Shown here piece after piece: positions 10,038 to 18,312 of a stretch of 64,000 nucleotides of DNA. The DNA lies in assembly GCA_045863195.1 (NCBI GenBank), contig BTUI01000009.1:51951-115950 (forward strand), in the 5' to 3' direction. Every line of letters starts with the position of its first letter. The stretch's first letter is position 1. This DNA comes from Chloroflexota bacterium. Its GTDB lineage: Bacteria > Chloroflexota > Dehalococcoidia > UBA2979. The position numbers and the translations under genes are program-made. The notes beneath the pieces were generated by a model. That model was not told the origin of the DNA. It saw only the letters and a program-made list of their open reading frames with translations, and did no database searches.

Positions 10038-10984
10038 TCAACGCGGGCGCGACACGGGCTGAGATTGCGTCTCAGGTGGGAACACCCGGAACGGGTGCCA
10101 CAATCCGAGGCCGGTGGCGGGTTCCAGCAGGGCGATCAGGTCACCGTCCGGCCCGTAGCACCTCATCCGGGACGCCGTGGCGGGGTCCGCCGGGGCCGCT
10201 CCCGGGACGATCAGCACGTCCATCCCCTGCCGGACGCGCGCCGCCTCCCTCGCTTCGAGGGTGACCGCGGGCCAGCCGCCGAGCACGATGTCCGGTGGCT
10301 GCACCAGCCCGGCGGCCTCACCCGCCTCCAGCAGCCGCACCGCCTCGTCCAGCGGCGTCGCCTCATCGGCGAGGAACGGGCCGACCTGCGTGCGCCGCAA
10401 CTCCGCGAGGTGCGCCCCCACGCCCAGTGTCTGGCCGGCGTCGTGCGCGAGCGATCGGACATAAAACCCACGCCCGCACCGCACATCGAGGACGGCGCGC
10501 GGCCGCGACGGGTCTGACGCGTCCCACGAAACGACCTCGACGCCGTAGATCGTGACCGGGCGTTCCTCCAGGTCGAGCGGCTCACCGCGGCGGGCGGCGC
10601 TGTAGGCGGTGACGCCCGCGCGCTTCACCGCGCTGAAGGCGGGCGGGCGCTGCATGATCTCGCCGTGGAACGGCGCAAGCGCCGCCTCCACCGCCTCGCG
10701 CGTCACGCCGGAGGCATCGTGCTCCTCGGTGACCTGGCCGTCCACGTCGTAGGAGTCGGTGGCGACGCCGAAGACGACCTCCGCGAGGTAGCGCTTGCGG
10801 GCGTCCATCAGTTCATCGACGAGGCGGGTCGCCTCGCCCAGGGCGACGGGGAGGACGCCGGTGGCGTTGGGGTCCAGGGTGCCGGCGTGGCCGACCCTGC
10901 GGATGCCGGCGGCGCGCCGCACGCGGCGCACCACGTCGAAGGAGGTGATCCCCTTCGGCTTGTTGATGTTGATGAAGCCGCGCA
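10038..10984 (-). CDS. truB: tRNA pseudouridine(55) synthase TruB
   Basis: ..GHAGTLDP.. catalytic Asp motif. The open frame extends upstream of the track's start (..LRGFININKPKGITSFDVV..) with no ATG/GTG/TTG, so the start is probably a CTG at about 10984 overlapping the rbfA stop. Confidence 0.85.
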
Positions 10985-10987
10985 GGA

Positions 10988-11428
10988 CTAGAGCTCCCGG
11001 CCCTCGGAGTGGGCCACATCCCGCAACAGGCGGGTCATGCGGTCCGCTTCTTCCATCGACTCGTCGAGGACGAAGGTGAGCTGGGGGACGCGCCGCATCC
11101 GCAGTTCGTGGTTCAACTCCCGGTGGAGGAACGGCGCGGAACGGGTGAGGGCGGCGATGACCTCGGTCTTCTGGGTGTCGTCGCCCATCACGGAGACCTT
11201 CACGCGCGCGTGGGCCAGGTCCGGGGAGACGTCCACCTCCGTGAAGGAGAAGAACGCGCCGTCCAGGCCGCGGTCTTTGACCCGCAGCCGCACCACGTCC
11301 GCCAGGGCGGCCTGGATGACGTCTCCGACCTTCTCCGTCCGCCTGCTCAGCGCACCTGCTCCATGTGGTGGGTCAGGATCTGGTCGCCCTCTTCGAACCC
11401 GTCGAAGTTGGAGATCATGATGCCGCAC
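10988..11428 (-). CDS. rbfA: ribosome-binding factor A
   Basis: SRRTEKVGDVIQAALADVV..DGAFFSFTEVDVSPDL.. matches the RbfA KH-like fold. The annotated ATG would overlap infB by 82 nt, so the real start is probably near 11350 (non-ATG). Confidence 0.8.
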   Translation of the reverse strand: MRHHDLQLRRVRRGRPDPDPPHGAGALSRRTEKVGDVIQAALADVVRLRVKDRGLDGAFFSFTEVDVSPDLAHARVKVSVMGDDTQKTEVIAALTRSAPFLHRELNHELRMRRVPQLTFVLDESMEEADRMTRLLRDVAHSEGREL

Positions 11429-13125
11429 TCCAGGCCGGCGTTGACCTCGCGCGCGTCCTCGTTCAGGCGCTTCAGCGACTCGATGATGCCCTCGTGGATC
11501 ACCTTGCCACCGCGCATGACGCGGCAGCGGGAGCCGCGGGTGACGCTGCCCTCGCGCACGTAGGAGCCGGCGATGGCGTTGCGGCGGCTGACGCGGAAAA
11601 TCTGGCGGACCTCCACCATGCCGTCCTGGACCTCCTTGTAGATGGGCTCCAGGAGGCCCTTCACGGCCTTCTCCACGTCCTCGATGATGTCGTAGATGAT
11701 CCGGTAATCGCGGATCTCGATCTTCTCGTGGTCCGCCAAGCGGCGCGCGCCCGGCTCCGTCGTCACGTTGAAGGCGACGATGACGCCCTTCGAGGCGACC
11801 GCGAGCTGCACGTCCGACTCCGTCACGGAGCCGACCGAGGCGTGGATCACGCGGACGTTGACCTCGTCCACGCTTAGTTCCTCGAGCGACTGCACGAGCG
11901 GGTCGATGGAGCCCTGGACGTCCGTCTTCAGGATCAGGTTGAAGTCGGTGACGTTGCCCTTGTGGATCTCGCCGAAGAGCGAGTCCAGGGTGACGCCGGT
12001 GGCCTGCTGCTGCCCGGCCGCGATCGCGCGCTCGCGGGTGTCCGCCTCCGCGCGCGCTTCCTTTTCGTTCTTGCGGACGACGAAGCGCTCGCCCGCCGGG
12101 GGCACGTCGTTCAGGCCGAGGATCTCGACCGGCGTGCTCGGGCCGGCCTCCGCCAGCCGCTGGCCGGAGGCGTCCGTCATCGCCTTCACGCGCCCGTAGG
12201 CGAGGCCGGCGAGGATCGTGTCGCCGGCGCGCAGCGTGCCGGTCTGGACGAGGACGGTGGCGACGACGCCGCGGTGGCGGTCCGTCTTCGCCTCCAGCAC
12301 CACGCCCACAGCGTCCTGGTCCGGGTTGGCGCGGAGGTCCTGCAGTTCGGCGACGACCTGCACGTTCTCCAGCAGCGTGTCGATGCCCTCGCCCTTCAGG
12401 GCGGAGATCGGGACGACGATCTGGTCGCCGCCGTACGCCTCCGGCACCAGCCCGACCTCGGTCAGTTGCTGCATGACGCGGTCCACATTGGCGTTGTTGG
12501 CGTCGATCTTGTTGACCGCGATCACCATCGGCACCTGCGCGGCCTTCACGTGGGCGAACGCCTCGCGCGTCTGCTGCATGATGCCGTCGTCCGCGGCGAC
12601 CACGATGATCGCCACGTCCGTGACCATGGCGCCGCGCGCCCGCATCTGGGAGAAGGCCTGGTGGCCGGGGGTGTCGATGAACGTGATCAGGCGGCCGTCC
12701 GGGCCCTTCGCCTGGTACGCACCGATGTGCTGCGTGATGCCGCCGGCCTCGCCGCCGGCGACGTTCGCGTGACGGATGCGGTCCAGCAGCGTGGTCTTGC
12801 CGTGGTCGACGTGGCCGAGCACCGTGACGACCGCCGGGCGGGGCGCCAGCCCGGCGCCCTCCTCCACGATGCGGAGCGTGCGAGGCGCGTCCGGGGACGC
12901 GTCCGCTTCCGCAGCCGGCGCTGCGGTCTCGAACTCCTCCGGGGAGAAGCCCAGGTCGGCGGCGACGATGGCGGCGGTGTCGAAGTCGATGGTCTGCGTG
13001 ATGGTGGCCATCACGCCGTTCTTCATCAGTTCCTTGATGATGTCGATGGCGGTGACGCCGAGGAGCTCAGCGAGCTCGCCGACGACGATGGCCGGGGGGA
13101 TCCTCACGACCTGCTGGTTCGTCAT
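11347..13125 (-). CDS. infB: translation initiation factor IF-2 (short form, 592 aa, no long N-terminal domain)
   Basis: G-domain GHVDHGKTTLLD, DTPGH, NKID; C-terminal beta-barrels. Confidence 0.95.
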   Translation of the reverse strand: MTNQQVVRIPPAIVVGELAELLGVTAIDIIKELMKNGVMATITQTIDFDTAAIVAADLGFSPEEFETAAPAAEADASPDAPRTLRIVEEGAGLAPRPAVVTVLGHVDHGKTTLLDRIRHANVAGGEAGGITQHIGAYQAKGPDGRLITFIDTPGHQAFSQMRARGAMVTDVAIIVVAADDGIMQQTREAFAHVKAAQVPMVIAVNKIDANNANVDRVMQQLTEVGLVPEAYGGDQIVVPISALKGEGIDTLLENVQVVAELQDLRANPDQDAVGVVLEAKTDRHRGVVATVLVQTGTLRAGDTILAGLAYGRVKAMTDASGQRLAEAGPSTPVEILGLNDVPPAGERFVVRKNEKEARAEADTRERAIAAGQQQATGVTLDSLFGEIHKGNVTDFNLILKTDVQGSIDPLVQSLEELSVDEVNVRVIHASVGSVTESDVQLAVASKGVIVAFNVTTEPGARRLADHEKIEIRDYRIIYDIIEDVEKAVKGLLEPIYKEVQDGMVEVRQIFRVSRRNAIAGSYVREGSVTRGSRCRVMRGGKVIHEGIIESLKRLNEDAREVNAGLECGIMISNFDGFEEGDQILTHHMEQVR

Positions 13126-13478
13126 GCGTCGCCTTCTCTCTCGTCGCCGCCGGTGCGGTCGGCGTCGTCTGTCTGCGTGGTGAAGCGCTCGGCGTGGGCC
13201 AGCAGGGCCGCGCGGTCCGCTTCGGTGATGGTGGCGCGCAGGCTGGCCGCCAGCGCGCCCTTCAATGCCCGGGTCCAGCAGGAGGCCTGCCGGCAGAGGT
13301 AGGCACCGCGCCCAGGGGCACGTCGCCGGCCTTCGTCGACGACGACCGGGCCTTCGGGCGACCGGACGAGGCGGACGAAGGAGGACTGGTCACCGCTTCG
13401 CCGGCACGCCACGCAGGTGCGCTGCGGAGCGGGCCGGTCGGTCCCGGGCCTAGTAGTCGTCCTCGTCGTCGCCCTCAT
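13122..13478 (-). CDS. ylxR: YlxR/DUF448 family protein (nusA-infB operon RNA-binding protein)
   Basis: RTCVACR..FVRLV..GRGAYLC..C pattern; sits between nusA and infB. ATGA overlap with the infB start. Confidence 0.8.
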   Translation of the reverse strand: MRATTRTTTRPGTDRPAPQRTCVACRRSGDQSSFVRLVRSPEGPVVVDEGRRRAPGRGAYLCRQASCWTRALKGALAASLRATITEADRAALLAHAERFTTQTDDADRTGGDEREGDA

Positions 13479-15081
13479 CGTCGTCCAGGAAGTCGTCGCC
13501 CTTCAGCGCGGCTTCGATCTCCTCGTCGTCGACCTCGAACCGACGGCCAGCGCCACCGCGCTGCGGGCCAGCGGCACGCACGCGCTGGGCCGGGCCGGGC
13601 CGGCGCGCCTTGCGCTTCGCCGCCGCACCGCGCCGGAGCGCGTCCGGGTCTTCTTCTTCGATGCGCAGTTCGCCGATCTCCTCGGCGAAGCGGAGGCCGG
13701 TGGGGGACTCGCGCTCGCGGCGCGGGGCCGCCGGCGTCTCGACCGCGGGGGCCGCCGCCACCGGCTCCTCGTCCTCCTCCACGAACGCCGCCAGCACCTC
13801 CTGCTCGGGGGTGAGGCGCACGTCCTCCTCTTCCTCCTCGTGCTTCGGCGCGACGGGGCGAGGCGTGAGCGGGGCGCGCTCGCCGGGCAGGCCCGGGCGG
13901 GCGTAGGCCGCCTGGGATGGCGCGACGATGTCCGGTAGCGGGGCAACCTCCGCGGCCGCGGCCGCAGCGCGCTCCACCGGGATCGCGTCCATGTTCGGCT
14001 CCGGGGGCGGGTAGAGGTCGTCCCCGGCGGAGATGACCGCGCTCTCCGCGCGGATGTCGATGCGGCGGCCGGTCAACTGGGCGGCCAGGCGGGCGTTCTG
14101 CCCCTCCTTGCCGATCGCCAGGCTCAACTGCTTGTCCGGCACGGCGAGGAACGCGGTGTTGGTGTCCCGGTCGATGCGGACGGAGACGACCTCCGCCGGG
14201 CTCAGGGCGTTGGCGACGTACGCCTCCTCCACCGGGTCCCAGCGGATGATGTCCAGGCGCTCGCCGCCCAGTTCGTTCACGATGTTCTGGATGCGCGAGC
14301 CGCGCACGCCCACGCACGCACCGATCGGGTCGATGCCGTGCTGGCGGGAGATGACCGCGATCTTCGCGCGGTGGCCGGCGTCACGGGCGATGCCCATGAT
14401 CTCGACCGCGCCGCGCGCGATCTCCGGGATCTCGAGTTCGAACAACCGCCGCAGCAGGTTCGGGTGGGAGCGGGAGACCACGACCTGCGGGCCCTTGGAG
14501 GCCTTGTAGACCTCCTTCACGTACACGCGCAGGCGCTGGCCCACGCGGTAGTGCTCCGCGCGGACCTGCTCCGCGGACGGCAGGACGGCCTCCGTGCGGC
14601 CCAGGTCCAGGATCACCTGGCGGCGGCCGCCCTCTACGCGCAGCACCGTGCCGGAGACGAGTTCGCCTTCCTTGCCGGTGAAGTCCTCGAAGACCGACTC
14701 GCGCTCCGCCTCGCGCAGGCGCTGCAGCACGACCTGCTTCGCGGTCTGCGCGGCGATGCGCCCGGCCTGCGCCGAGGCCTGCACCTCCTCGAGGACGAAG
14801 TCGCCGACCTTCTTGCCCGGGAAGCCCATGGCGGCGGCGCGCTCCGGCGAGACCTGGATCTCGTCGTCCTCGATGTCGTCGTCGTTCATGACCTCGTACT
14901 GGCGGAAGTACTTGATGTCACCGGAGTCCCGGTTGATCTGGACCTTCACGTCCGCGTACTGCAGGTCGTCCTTCTTGAGCGCGGACGCCATGGCGGCTTC
15001 GACCGCGGCGAACACCGTTGCCGTGTCGAGGTTCTTCTCCGCCGACAACTGGCTGATGGCGATCACGAACTCGTTCTTCAT
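13450..15081 (-). CDS. nusA: transcription termination/antitermination factor NusA with a long acidic Ala/Pro-rich C-terminal extension
   Basis: MKNEFV..; S1 and KH domains; C-terminal ..DDEGDDEDDY tail. Confidence 0.95.
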   Translation of the reverse strand: MKNEFVIAISQLSAEKNLDTATVFAAVEAAMASALKKDDLQYADVKVQINRDSGDIKYFRQYEVMNDDDIEDDEIQVSPERAAAMGFPGKKVGDFVLEEVQASAQAGRIAAQTAKQVVLQRLREAERESVFEDFTGKEGELVSGTVLRVEGGRRQVILDLGRTEAVLPSAEQVRAEHYRVGQRLRVYVKEVYKASKGPQVVVSRSHPNLLRRLFELEIPEIARGAVEIMGIARDAGHRAKIAVISRQHGIDPIGACVGVRGSRIQNIVNELGGERLDIIRWDPVEEAYVANALSPAEVVSVRIDRDTNTAFLAVPDKQLSLAIGKEGQNARLAAQLTGRRIDIRAESAVISAGDDLYPPPEPNMDAIPVERAAAAAAEVAPLPDIVAPSQAAYARPGLPGERAPLTPRPVAPKHEEEEEDVRLTPEQEVLAAFVEEDEEPVAAAPAVETPAAPRRERESPTGLRFAEEIGELRIEEEDPDALRRGAAAKRKARRPGPAQRVRAAGPQRGGAGRRFEVDDEEIEAALKGDDFLDDDEGDDEDDY

Positions 15082-15149
15082 TCGGTCATCCGTACCCGGG
15101 GGGTGCTCCCGGCTGCGCGGGCCGCCGACACGGCTACCCGGTGCGACTC

Positions 15150-15178
15150 AACAAAAAACGTGGGCACCGGGCCCACGT
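15150..15178 (-). terminator. GC-rich hairpin plus U6 tract in the nusA 5' leader (candidate attenuator / intrinsic terminator)
   Basis: The minus-strand RNA reads ACGUGGGC-CCGGU-GCCCACGU followed by UUUUUUGUU, about 70 nt upstream of the nusA ATG. No rimP gene lies in between. Confidence 0.5.
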
Positions 15179-15319
15179 CTCGATGAGAGGCGCTGCGAGG
15201 AACATCGTACCAGTCTTACCGCGCTGCCCTCAAGCATTCCGGACACCGGCCGATGATCCCCGTATCCCACCGGCGCGCCCTGTGCGCCGCCGCGTCTGGA
15301 TCGAGGAAGGCAGCCGCCC

Positions 15320-16543
15320 GTGCGACGCGTCTACCTGGACGACCCGCTCGTGGAGGGCGCCACCCTGGCCCGCGACATCGTCGGGCCCGGCGGCGACCCG
15401 ATCGCCCGCGCCGGGCACCGCCTGGCCGGGCGCGCGCTCCGGGCGCTGGCGGAGCGGGGCGCCACCGTCTGCTACGTGGAGGACGAGGCTGGCGCCGGCG
15501 TGGACGCGGCCCCGCTCCCCGACCACCCGGCCGTGGAGGCCACCCGGAACGCCCTGTCGGAGTTGTGCCGCGTCCTTGCGCGCGACCTCGGGCCCCTCCA
15601 GCGCCACCCCACCTCCCGGGCGTTGGAGGAGATCAAGAACGCGCGGCCGTTGAAGACGGCGGCGTTCGCGCTGGACGGCGTCCGGGCCACCGCGCCCGCG
15701 TTGGCTGGCGCCGCACGGAATGTGTCCGGCGCGGCCGGGCTCCTGTTCGACCGCCATCCCACCGATGACCTGGTGGGGCACTCCGTCCACGTTGCCGTCA
15801 TCGCCGGCCGCCTCGGCGCGGCGATCGGCTTCTCCGAGAACGACCTGGCGACGACGGTGTTCGCGGCCCTGCTCCACGACCTCGGCCTGCTGGCCGTGCC
15901 GGACGAGGTCCGGCGGACGCCCGAGGCGCGGCGGAGCCCCGCGGAGCAGCGGCGGTGGGAGGACCACACGCTCCTGGGCGAGATGATCCTCGGCCCGGCC
16001 TCGCTCCGCACGCCAGCGGTGCCGATCGTCGCGGTCGAGCACCACGAGTCGCAGAACGGCGCCGGGTTCCCGCGCGGCCTGACCGGCGGCAACCGCATCC
16101 TGCGAGCCGCGGAGCACGCCGCCGACCGCACCCGCATCGCCCTGGTCTCCGAGGTCATCGCCACGGCCGACCGCTACGAGCGCCTGGTGGCGCCGGCCGT
16201 GGGGACACGGCCGCTCAGCGCCGCGGCCGCACGCACCGTGCTCACCGTGGAAGCCGGCGCGGTGCTGAACGCGGAGGTGGTGGCGCGCATGCTCGATGTG
16301 ATCCCGGCGTGGCCGCTGGGGAGCGAGGTGCGGCTGCACGGCGGTGAGCATGACGGCGCGCACGCGGTGGTCACGGGCTTCGACGCACGGCTCCCCGAGC
16401 GTCCAGCGGTGCGCGTCTTCGCGGACGCCTCGCGACGCCCGGTGGAGCCGGTCGACCTGGACCTGCGCGAGGCGCCGGCGCTGATGCTGGAGCCGGTCGA
16501 CCTGCCCTCGCAGGCGCCGGGTCTCGCGGCGGGACGCGCCTAG
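15320..16543 (+). CDS. HD-GYP domain protein (metal-dependent phosphohydrolase, c-di-GMP PDE family)
   Basis: LHDLG (HD) and VEHHESQNGAGFPRGL (HHExxDGxGYP-like) motifs; GTG start. Confidence 0.7.
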   Translation: MRRVYLDDPLVEGATLARDIVGPGGDPIARAGHRLAGRALRALAERGATVCYVEDEAGAGVDAAPLPDHPAVEATRNALSELCRVLARDLGPLQRHPTSRALEEIKNARPLKTAAFALDGVRATAPALAGAARNVSGAAGLLFDRHPTDDLVGHSVHVAVIAGRLGAAIGFSENDLATTVFAALLHDLGLLAVPDEVRRTPEARRSPAEQRRWEDHTLLGEMILGPASLRTPAVPIVAVEHHESQNGAGFPRGLTGGNRILRAAEHAADRTRIALVSEVIATADRYERLVAPAVGTRPLSAAAARTVLTVEAGAVLNAEVVARMLDVIPAWPLGSEVRLHGGEHDGAHAVVTGFDARLPERPAVRVFADASRRPVEPVDLDLREAPALMLEPVDLPSQAPGLAAGRA

Positions 16544-18312
16544 CGGGCGCGGGCCCGGCGCTCCGCGGCGTCCACCGTCAGCGCCTCGATCAGCCCGCGC
16601 TTCGCCGCCAGCACGCGTTCGACCACCTCCGCGCGCGGCAGGTTCTCGCCCTCGCCCGTGGCGCGCACCTTGAACTCGACGACGCCTGCCGCCGTGTTGC
16701 GGCTGGAGACGGTGAGGCGCAGCGGCATGCCGATCAGGTCGGCGTCGTTGAACTTCACGCCCGGTCGCTCGTCGCGGTCGTCGAAGATCACCTGCAGCCC
16801 GGCGGCGCGCAGCTCGTCGTAGAGCGCTTCCGCATCCGCGCGTGCCGCCTCGTCACGGTCGAGCCCAATGCCCACCATGTGCACGTCGTACGGCGCGATC
16901 GAGGCGGGCCAGCAGATGCCGGCGTCGTCATGGTTCGCCTCCACCGCGGCGGAGAGCACGCGCTCCACGCCGATGCCGTAGCAGCCCATTGTGGGCATGA
17001 CCTGGCCGCCGTCCTGGCCGAGGACGTTCACGTTGAACGCCTTCGTGTAGACGTACTGCAGGCGGAAGACGTGGCCCATCTCGATGCCGCGGGAGGACTG
17101 GAGCGTGCCGCCGCAGCGGGCGCAGCCATGCCCGGCGCGCGCGCTCGCGATGTCCGCCACCGGTGCCTGCCAGTCCCGCCCGAAGTTCACGTTGCGCAGG
17201 TGCCAGCCGGGCCGGTTCGCGCCGGCCACGAGGTTCGGCGACCCCTCGAGCGAGAGGTCCGCGATCACGCGCACGCCGTCACGCACGCCGATCGGCGAGG
17301 CGTAGCCGGCGACCAGCCCGTACTCCGCCACCTCCGCGTCCAGCATCGGCCGCAGGTCGACGTTGCCGCCGAGCGCGTTCATCAACTTGACCTCGTTCAC
17401 CTCGAGGTCGCCGCGCACCACGGCGAAGACGGGCGTGCCGCGCTTGCCGTCCTTCGGCGTCGCCATCATGAAGACGGCCTTCGCCGTCTGCTTCGGCTCG
17501 ATCCCGAGGAACGCGGCGAGGTCCTCGATGGTGGTGACGCCGGGCGTCTCGACCTCCTCGGTCGGGAGCGGCTCACCCGCGACGGCGGTGGGGCGGACGA
17601 ATTCCGCCTTCTCGGTGTTCGCCGCGTAGTCGCAGGAGTCGCAGTAGACGATCGTGTCCTCGCCGTACTCGGTGAAGAAGATGAACTCCTGCGACCCCTT
17701 GCCGCCGATGGCGCCGGAGTCAGCCTCCACCGCCACCGTCGGCACGCCGCAGCGCGCGAAGATGCGGCGGTACGCCTGGAACATCGCCGCGTAGGAGCGG
17801 TCGAGGCCGGCGTCGTCCGCGTCGAAGGAGTAGGCGTCCTTCATCGTGAACTCGCGCACGCGCACCAGGCCCCCGCGGGGGCGAGCCTCGTCGCGGAACT
17901 TCCGCTGCAGCTGGTACAGGGTGGCGGGCAGGTCGCGGTAGGACTGGGCGTGGTCCTGGAAGAGGCGCGTCACGACCTCCTCGTGCGTCGGCCCCAGGGC
18001 CAGGCCGCGCTCGCGGCGGTCGCGGAGGTGGAAGAGCACGTCGCCCAGGGCGGCCTCGCGGCCGGACTGCTCCCAGAGTTCGACCGGCTGCAGCGCGGGG
18101 AGGTACACCTCCTGCGCGCCGGCGGCGTCCATCTCCTCGCGGATGACCTGCTCGATCTTCAGGCGCGCGCGGTTGCCCAGCGGCAGGAAGGAGTAGACGC
18201 CCGACATCAACTGGTCGATGTACCCGCCGCGCAGCAGCAGGCCGTGGGCCGGCGTCTCCGCCTCGTTGGGGAACTCGCGCAGGGTGTGGCCGAACAGTCG
18301 TGACATTCGCAT
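16540..18312 (-). CDS. proS: proline--tRNA ligase (bacterial type with INS editing domain)
   Basis: Class II aaRS motifs; 590 aa; MRMSRLFGHTLREFP start. Confidence 0.95.
   Translation of the reverse strand: MRMSRLFGHTLREFPNEAETPAHGLLLRGGYIDQLMSGVYSFLPLGNRARLKIEQVIREEMDAAGAQEVYLPALQPVELWEQSGREAALGDVLFHLRDRRERGLALGPTHEEVVTRLFQDHAQSYRDLPATLYQLQRKFRDEARPRGGLVRVREFTMKDAYSFDADDAGLDRSYAAMFQAYRRIFARCGVPTVAVEADSGAIGGKGSQEFIFFTEYGEDTIVYCDSCDYAANTEKAEFVRPTAVAGEPLPTEEVETPGVTTIEDLAAFLGIEPKQTAKAVFMMATPKDGKRGTPVFAVVRGDLEVNEVKLMNALGGNVDLRPMLDAEVAEYGLVAGYASPIGVRDGVRVIADLSLEGSPNLVAGANRPGWHLRNVNFGRDWQAPVADIASARAGHGCARCGGTLQSSRGIEMGHVFRLQYVYTKAFNVNVLGQDGGQVMPTMGCYGIGVERVLSAAVEANHDDAGICWPASIAPYDVHMVGIGLDRDEAARADAEALYDELRAAGLQVIFDDRDERPGVKFNDADLIGMPLRLTVSSRNTAAGVVEFKVRATGEGENLPRAEVVERVLAAKRGLIEALTVDAAERRARAR

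Follow-up and report, generated by a model that had tools for sequence, protein, structure and literature searches.

The rimP-leader has been described as the most widespread bacterial attenuator (Naville and Gautheret 2010, Genome Biol 11:R97, PMC2965389). It consists of a short terminator, whose GGGc...gCCC stem is unusually well conserved, and a U-stretch, and it lies 4-130 nt before the first gene of the rimP-nusA-infB operon. It has no antiterminator, and the motif was not found at other terminators. NusA was proposed as the ligand, with RimP feedback as an alternative (PMC2965389). Rfam covers part of this group with RF01770 ('Gammaproteobacteria rimP leader'). The second hairpin of RF01770 is the same terminator, GGGC...GCCC with U7, before E. 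coli rimP-nusA-infB. The 102-nt model also contains an upstream CCCCG...CGGGG terminator/antiterminator module, which is specific to Gammaproteobacteria.

A role of NusA has been reported in two model organisms. In E. coli, NusA represses the metY-rimP-nusA-infB operon (Plumbridge 1985; Nakamura 1985; both cited after PMC2965389). For the B. subtilis nusA leader, NusA-stimulated termination was shown experimentally (Mondal et al. 2016, Nat Microbiol 1:15007, as described in PMC12288461 and PMC8060035). According to these later papers of the same group, NusA-dependent terminators of B. subtilis have a weak hairpin and/or a distal interruption of the U-tract, as well as terminal A-U/G-U pairs.

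We analysed a stretch of 64 kb with a G+C content of 71.7%, which is called the window in the following. A protein of a 'Chloroflexota bacterium' MAG is 100% identical to the NusA encoded in the window, whose nearest relatives carry the labels Dehalococcoidia or Chloroflexota. nusA is the first gene of the operon nusA-ylxR-infB-rbfA-truB, and Pfam domains were found in all five genes (Table 1). The spacer between nusA and the divergent HD-domain gene comprises 238 nt (15082..15319). The original prediction had described this spacer as a 238-nt leader. The intergenic distance is indeed 238 nt, but the conserved promoter predicts a 5'UTR of ~115 nt. The NusA protein is long, with ~190 residues past the KH domains (C-terminal third, window 13450..14050) that include the acidic runs KHEEEEED and DDDEGDDE. 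Pfam assigned no domain in this C-terminal third.

Table 1. Features of the nusA operon, its leader and the upstream genes (coordinates of the window; DNA hexamers and RNA motifs are written in the sense of the strand given)
Feature	Position	Strand	Remarks
truB	10038..10934	minus	Pfam-confirmed
rbfA	10988..11428	minus	Pfam-confirmed
infB	11347..13125	minus	Pfam-confirmed
ylxR	13122..13478	minus	Pfam-confirmed
nusA	13450..15081	minus	543 aa; Pfam NusA_N, S1, KH_5
Variable rest of the 5'UTR	15082..15148	minus	Reaches the nusA start codon; length 40-159 nt in relatives, without clade-wide sequence conservation
U-tract UUUUUU-G-UU-G	15149..15158	minus	T6 at 15158..15153; distal interruption G15152
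Terminator hairpin	15158..15178	minus	5' arm ACGUGGGC at 15178..15171, loop CCGGU at 15170..15166, 3' arm GCCCACGU at 15165..15158
Purine flank GAGA	15178..15181	minus	A15178 is the first stem base
CGCCUC box	15187..15192	minus	Short 5' tail, between the predicted start and the hairpin
Predicted transcription start zone	15193..15199	minus	Most likely G15196, predicted from promoter geometry
Extended -10 TGG-TACGAT	15204..15212	minus	TG at 15212..15211, hexamer at 15209..15204, 18-nt spacer
-35-like hexamer TTGAGG	15228..15233	minus	Putative nusA operon promoter
HD-domain gene	15320..16543	plus	Divergent to nusA; Pfam HD_5, HD, HDOD
proS	16540..18312	minus	Beyond the HD-domain gene, upstream of nusA

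On the minus strand, the element in the spacer reads GAGACGUGGGC-CCGGU-GCCCACGUUUUUUGUUG. It is an intrinsic terminator by the usual definition: a G+C-rich hairpin is followed directly by a U-rich tract on the transcribed strand. The stem consists of eight Watson-Crick pairs (six of them G-C) and is closed by a 5-nt loop, exactly the 8-bp GC stem that had been predicted from the sequence. The predicted distance of about 70 nt to the nusA start was likewise accurate, with 71 nt from the end of the T-run to the ATG (15081). The predicted U6 tract needs a qualification. Six consecutive T are present, but the first of them was counted twice: it may also close the eighth stem pair, which leaves only U5-G-UU-G after the stem. 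In addition, pairing of the GAG flank with the U-run (G-U, A-U and G-U) can lengthen the stem, as found both by RNAalifold and by single-sequence folding.

The predicted short RNA of 48 nt has a folding energy of -17.3 kcal/mol with z = -1.95, a value that is only slightly out of the ordinary in this GC-rich context. The whole 261-nt spacer taken as one structured RNA was not unusual (z = -0.66).

Apart from the T6 run, neither strand of the 64-kb window has five or more T in a row, with ~2.3 such runs expected from Markov-1 simulations. As no other such run exists, the rest of the window (72% GC) seems to contain practically no canonical U-tract terminators. In the window, one perfect stem of 7 bp or more with a following T5 occurred, compared with 0.01 per window (3/300) in first-order Markov simulations. 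The original prediction had called it the only clean intrinsic terminator in the window. A scan of the window with a consensus terminator tool did not list the site, which our own scan for stem plus T-run did list. We think that the consensus scan extended the stem through GAGA/UUUU, leaving too few T.

By its sequence features, the element is the rimP-leader already described by Naville and Gautheret (2010; PMC2965389). The similarity to the published examples extends from the primary sequence of the element (compare GGGAUGGGCGUUUCGCCCAUUUUUUGUUUC of Pseudomonas, GAAAGUGGGCCGCGGUCGCCCACUUUUUC of Anaeromyxobacter and GGAAGUGGGUUAAUGCCCACUUUUUUUAUU of Nostoc) to its position in the 5'UTR of an operon with nusA and infB, where the 71 nt to the first gene fall within the published range of 4-130 nt. 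The stem of the window is GUGGGC...GCCCAC, and the U-stretch (T6-G-TT-G, 15158..15149) follows straight after the hairpin. The same core and the same U6-purine-UU tail occur in the rimP-leaders of Proteobacteria, Firmicutes, Cyanobacteria, Chlorobi and others in the published sequence lists (PMC2965389). As in the published leaders, no conserved antiterminator or larger sensing structure was found in the clade of the window. Two differences were observed. The first downstream gene is nusA and not rimP, making the element a rimP-less variant, and the stem is flanked by ACGU in the window versus AGAGU or GAU. The published rimP-leader lists contain no Chloroflexi, and the Dehalococcoides label does not occur in them, although D. 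ethenogenes was in the genome set (PMC2965389). Two of the four parts of these lists contain one actinobacterium only, Rubrobacter (PMC2965389).

The Rfam model did not recognise the element. RF01770 gave no match, neither in the whole window at the gathering threshold (47 bits) nor at E≤10 in 501 nt and 81 nt of the leader region, whereas the E. coli control reached 102 bits. At the gathering threshold, the whole window yielded two tRNAs only. A permissive Rfam search of the leader returned Actino-ugpB, STnc390 and asX2, all with E of 1 or more, i.e. at chance level. According to ARAGORN, the leader contains neither a tRNA nor a tmRNA, and thus no metY-like gene. In E. coli, too, the first protein gene is separated from the operon promoter by terminators, and NusA represses the operon (PMC2965389). 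However, E. coli has the tRNA gene metY and two tandem terminators before rimP, and the leader in the window has no tRNA, a single terminator and no rimP.

The leader of B. subtilis, as described in the papers cited above, resembles the leader of the window in having an intrinsic terminator in the nusA operon leader and no antiterminator. Moreover, terminal A-U/G-U pairs and a distal interruption of the U-tract are found in both, and in the clade of the window these features are invariant (GAGA-UUUU; U6-G-UU). In these sources, the two systems differ in three respects. NusA dependence was determined experimentally in B. subtilis and would be an extrapolation for the window, rimP (ylxS) is the first gene in B. 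subtilis, and the hairpin of the window is stronger than typical NusA-dependent terminators.

For the original prediction, a nusA start downstream of the hairpin or a lack of conservation in relatives would have been refuting; at the level of the sequence, both checks turned out in its favour. Relatives were retrieved via the NusA protein only, so the sample was unbiased towards the hairpin. It comprised 11 genome loci of Chloroflexota/Dehalococcoidia with 60-89% NusA identity, plus two distant outgroups. In all 11 NusA-retrieved loci, a hairpin with T6 was found before nusA, in one copy each and 41-98 nt upstream of the gene. In the alignment of the 12 NusA-found leaders, the spacer around the element was diverged. 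Within the element, GAGACGUGG and CCACGUUUUUU with the following U-G were invariant, as were the T6 with the following TG and the GAGA flank (12/12). GG...CC was invariant in 12/12, and the next two pairs were G-C and C-G in 10/12, with compensatory variants in the others.

A covariance model was built from the 12 NusA-found sequences. It scored the site in the window with 76.6 bits, compared with 8.5 bits for the next, unrelated site in the window, and detected one site per locus in 87 loci. When 82 distinct sequences were aligned to the model, 99.5% of cells were paired. The six lower pairs never varied, an invariance that is forced by the search pattern in the metagenome sequences and genuine in the 12 NusA-found sequences. 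Compensatory changes were seen at the two top pairs (GC to CG and CG to AU three times each, CG to GC twice). Both the length and the sequence of the loop varied among orthologues.

In the metagenome scan, we searched for the pattern GAGACGTGG-N3-15-CCACGTTTTTT, which was found in at least 120 loci. Among the matches listed, nusA was located downstream in 75 of 120. Two arrangements were distinguished. At least 31 loci were of the Chloroflexota type (NusA mostly 60-98% identical), with nusA 40-160 nt after the motif. They add to the 11 NusA-retrieved loci, and the hairpin was conserved in every relative examined. In at least 44 loci, nusA followed 515-725 nt after the motif, with rimP filling the gap. 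The NusA of these 44 rimP-bearing loci had ~79% identity with the NusA of an 'Actinomycetes bacterium' MAG, which assigns the group to Actinomycetota. About 20 further matches among those listed were recognised as the actinobacterial rimP-nusA leader by their upstream sequence; their contigs end before nusA. The remaining listed matches, on AT-rich phage-like contigs or inside coding regions, were regarded as unrelated. Seven of them (L019, L046, L068, L077, L086, L118 and L133) were AT-rich (32-38% GC) and phage-like with small ORFs and no nusA, and also seem unrelated. These seven share the terminator GAGACGUGGCGAGAUUUAUCUCGCCACGUUUUUU after a conserved 45-nt block.

The Actinomycetota copies (e.g. 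L040:2726-2807; also L020, L024, L089 and ~60 other loci) have an identical hairpin before rimP, GAGACGUGGGCG(C/A)AAGCCCACGUUUUUU, whose loop is of the GNRA type. Ahead of this hairpin runs a conserved ~55-nt leader, GGUUCGGU(A/U)GG...ACCCACCGGUCCCCAUCGGUCC, which itself follows a TATACT -10. This leader matched no Rfam family, and RNAalifold predicted the terminator only. An upstream CCCAC, which duplicates part of the 3' arm, could in principle compete for GUGGG as an antiterminator; this pairing had no RNAalifold support on the alignment. One copy before rimP (L012:4270-4345, from an 'Actinomycetes bacterium' MAG) is a variant, GAAAGCGUGGGC-CGCC-GCCCACGCUUUC followed by GUGGUUGUUGG. Its GUGGGC/GCCCAC core is unchanged but its U-tract is degenerate, and at E≤0.001 it escaped the covariance model.

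A more distant lineage (L065:925-991 and L104:1868-1934), whose NusA is 38-51% identical to that of the window, carries the hairpin 41-49 nt before nusA. Here, no rimP lies between hairpin and nusA, and the extended -10 is TGTATAGT.

The absence of rimP, already noticed in the original prediction, was confirmed for the operon position, for the window and for the sampled clade. The tblastn queries were five RimP proteins, three of them from actinobacteria, one from E. coli and one from an unknown phylum. In the window and 42 further clade loci (383 kb in total), they gave nothing better than E ~0.8, whereas in the positive control 43 of 43 actinobacterial loci were matched. A match with E=7 at 15257..15180 was considered as a rimP remnant; its position upstream of the terminator is wrong for one, and we took it for noise. 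The spacing is tight in about a dozen loci, where 60-200 nt separate the end of proS from the hairpin and nusA follows 40-110 nt after the hairpin, leaving no room for rimP. rimP is thus missing from the operon position in the whole sampled clade (43 loci). Judging from this arrangement, the element serves the nusA-infB operon and not rimP, and since it is intact without rimP in the operon, cis-encoded RimP cannot be the sensor here.

The upstream neighbour varied between the clade loci: it was a co-directional proS in 21, a divergent HD-domain gene in 15 and another gene in 4, and the element always stayed with nusA. In 15 of 43 clade loci, the divergent HD-domain gene separates proS from the nusA leader, and proS directly abuts the leader in about a dozen others. 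Owing to the latter, the HD-domain gene looks like an insertion into an ancestral proS-leader-nusA order. Upstream of the -35 of nusA, a block GGGATCATCGG (minus strand; CCGATGATCCC on the plus strand, 15250..15260) is conserved in the window, L001 and L003, with a near-match in L005. This block was conserved in several loci with the HD-domain gene as divergent neighbour and may be part of the promoter or the regulation of that gene.

A promoter pattern was found at a fixed place before the hairpin. TTGnnn-N17/18-TAnnnT was present in 37 of the 42 distinct leaders of the Chloroflexota type, with the -10 ending 20-27 nt before GAGA; the chance rate of this pattern was 0.3% in random 80-nt windows of the same loci. 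The commonest -35 was TTGAGG (21/37), the commonest -10 was TACGAT (17/37), and 35 of 37 had the TGn extension. The five leaders without the full pattern still had the extended -10. In the alignment of NusA-found leaders, the T and A of the -10 hexamer were invariant. As for sigma-70 promoters in general, a start ~7 nt after the -10 was assumed. This geometry predicts the 5'UTR of ~115 nt mentioned above and places the hairpin at about +16 to +39, with ~15 nt of predicted transcript ahead of it.

Downstream of the terminator, no promoter-like site or extended -10 was found before the nusA ATG (0 of 33 distinct leaders). A conserved TTG after the U-tract was considered as part of a second promoter; no -10 follows it, and none of the 33 leaders is promoter-like there. 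With no promoter-like site downstream and a divergent gene upstream, transcription of nusA-ylxR-infB would have to pass the terminator. The possibility that nusA transcription starts downstream of the hairpin, which would have spoken against the attenuator, thus finds no counterpart in the sequences: the only conserved promoter is upstream. In the variable part of the 5'UTR, a leader peptide of three codons (AUG-ACC-GAA-UGA, 15081..15092, minus strand), with an AUGA overlap with the nusA start, was discarded as it is not conserved in relatives.

The short 5' tail contains the CGCCUC box. In the alignment of the 12 NusA-found leaders, its positions G21, C22, C23 and T24 were invariant or nearly so, and the metagenome leaders have CG(C/G)CUC. 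The box is absent from actinobacterial leaders. RNAalifold predicted no pairing partner for it. By eye, the CUC could pair with GAG at 15181..15179 in a helix of 3-5 bp, which is also present in the MFE fold; as both sides are invariant, this helix is beyond covariation analysis. Some leaders contain CGCCUCCCUCC, which is like the 16S 3' end, and a mimic of the anti-Shine-Dalgarno sequence was considered; it was rejected as only CG(C/G)CUC is conserved clade-wide. RNAalifold predicted no antiterminator in the 12 NusA-found Chloroflexota leaders, only the terminator.

Taken together, we consider it likely that the element is a promoter-proximal attenuator of nusA-ylxR-infB-rbfA-truB of the rimP-leader type, with NusA as the best candidate for the sensor. 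Transcription would start near 15196 from a sigma-70-type promoter (TTGAGG, 18 nt, TGG-TACGAT). About 15 nt further on, RNA polymerase would make the hairpin ACGUGGGC-loop-GCCCACGU and the U6-G-UU-G tract. Then either an RNA of ~45 nt would be released or the polymerase would read through into nusA. The original prediction had offered an attenuator or the terminator of a small upstream transcript. These two readings are one, because a promoter-proximal terminator gives either the ~45-nt transcript, when it fires, or nusA mRNA, when it is read through. The attenuator itself is in line with the conserved hairpin and the promoter upstream of it.

As no antiterminator fold was found, the fraction of read-through is most likely set by a trans-acting factor at the hairpin or the U-tract. 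If this factor is NusA, more NusA would lead to more termination and hence to less nusA/infB mRNA, i.e. to negative feedback. Attenuation tuned by NusA is the most likely mechanism, because the E. coli operon is repressed by NusA and the terminator features known from B. subtilis are invariant here. We infer the start site and the partial termination from the sequence, and NusA as the sensing factor from the precedent of E. coli and B. subtilis. A strong hairpin of this kind may also terminate well without NusA, and read-through into an essential operon would then need another cause.

That the sequence of the lower stem is strictly invariant suggests a sequence-specific reader, and for such a binding motif NusA is only a candidate. 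The same attenuator could therefore be read by another sensor: NusG, RimP encoded elsewhere, IF2 or another product of the operon, or nucleotide or growth-rate sensing at the U-tract. We consider this unlikely. A specific reader other than NusA would fit the lower stem and the GAGA flank, which are invariant in the NusA-found leaders and recur in Actinomycetota, and Naville and Gautheret mentioned RimP feedback (PMC2965389). However, the element is intact even though rimP is missing from the operon in 43 of 43 clade loci, which leaves no cis-encoded RimP as a sensor, and the only experimental precedents (E. coli and B. subtilis) favour NusA.

The terminator could also be constitutive and unregulated, a fixed damper on a strong promoter that doubles as the proS terminator where proS adjoins. 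For such a role, structure alone would suffice, and a stem sequence that is invariant across two phyla would not be needed. The canonical strong hairpin, for which no alternative fold was predicted, agrees with a fixed damper, and so does the same-strand proS that ends 60-200 nt upstream in about a dozen loci. Yet a dedicated promoter lies between proS and the terminator, and the upstream gene in the window is divergent, so insulation from proS cannot be the main role. The motif is also tied to one operon across many phyla (PMC2965389). An unregulated terminator is therefore improbable.

Promoter, short 5' tail and terminator together have the complete minimal architecture of a small-RNA gene, and no intramolecular partner was predicted for the conserved CGCCUC box. 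On this basis, the ~45-nt RNA could act in trans, with nusA expression as a by-product of read-through. This is very unlikely: the element is always located directly before nusA or rimP and was never seen elsewhere, and nusA has no promoter of its own. Moreover, Chloroflexota and Actinomycetota have an identical hairpin but wholly different 5' tails, which means that the conserved part is the terminator and not a seed. It is equally doubtful that the ~45-nt terminated RNA of the attenuator is itself a trans-acting, 5'UTR-derived sRNA that reports NusA activity. If this were true, its C/U-rich 5' tail (CGCCUC...) could pair with purine-rich sites such as Shine-Dalgarno regions, and the autoregulation of nusA would be coupled to a wider post-transcriptional response.

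Finally, the inverted repeat ACGTGGGC-N5-GCCCACGT at ~+18 to +38 forms a perfect palindrome, and its half-sites are invariant, but a DNA operator for a dimeric repressor just past the start site is scarcely credible, since the varying loop, i.e. a half-site spacing that dimeric operators rarely tolerate, favours an RNA hairpin, and the one-sided invariant T6-G-TTG and the compensatory changes in the top stem fit an RNA terminator.

We regard the feature as a strongly conserved transcription attenuator of a known kind, which is newly documented for Chloroflexota in a rimP-less form and, to judge by its sequence, involves no new mechanism. The picture of how such attenuators work is unchanged, and the value of the finding lies chiefly in annotation, next to a comparative argument on the sensor. 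The 'most ubiquitous attenuator' now includes Chloroflexota as well as many Actinomycetota, the latter with a longer leader. The loss of rimP from the operon, with hairpin, exact sequence and U-tract kept, is a natural experiment. It narrows the question of what reads the GGGC/GCCC stem, which has been asked since 2010, to NusA or another trans-acting factor. Rfam, with its single gammaproteobacterial model, covers neither Chloroflexota nor Actinomycetota. With a general covariance model, a regulatory site before an essential operon would be annotated in many uncultured lineages.
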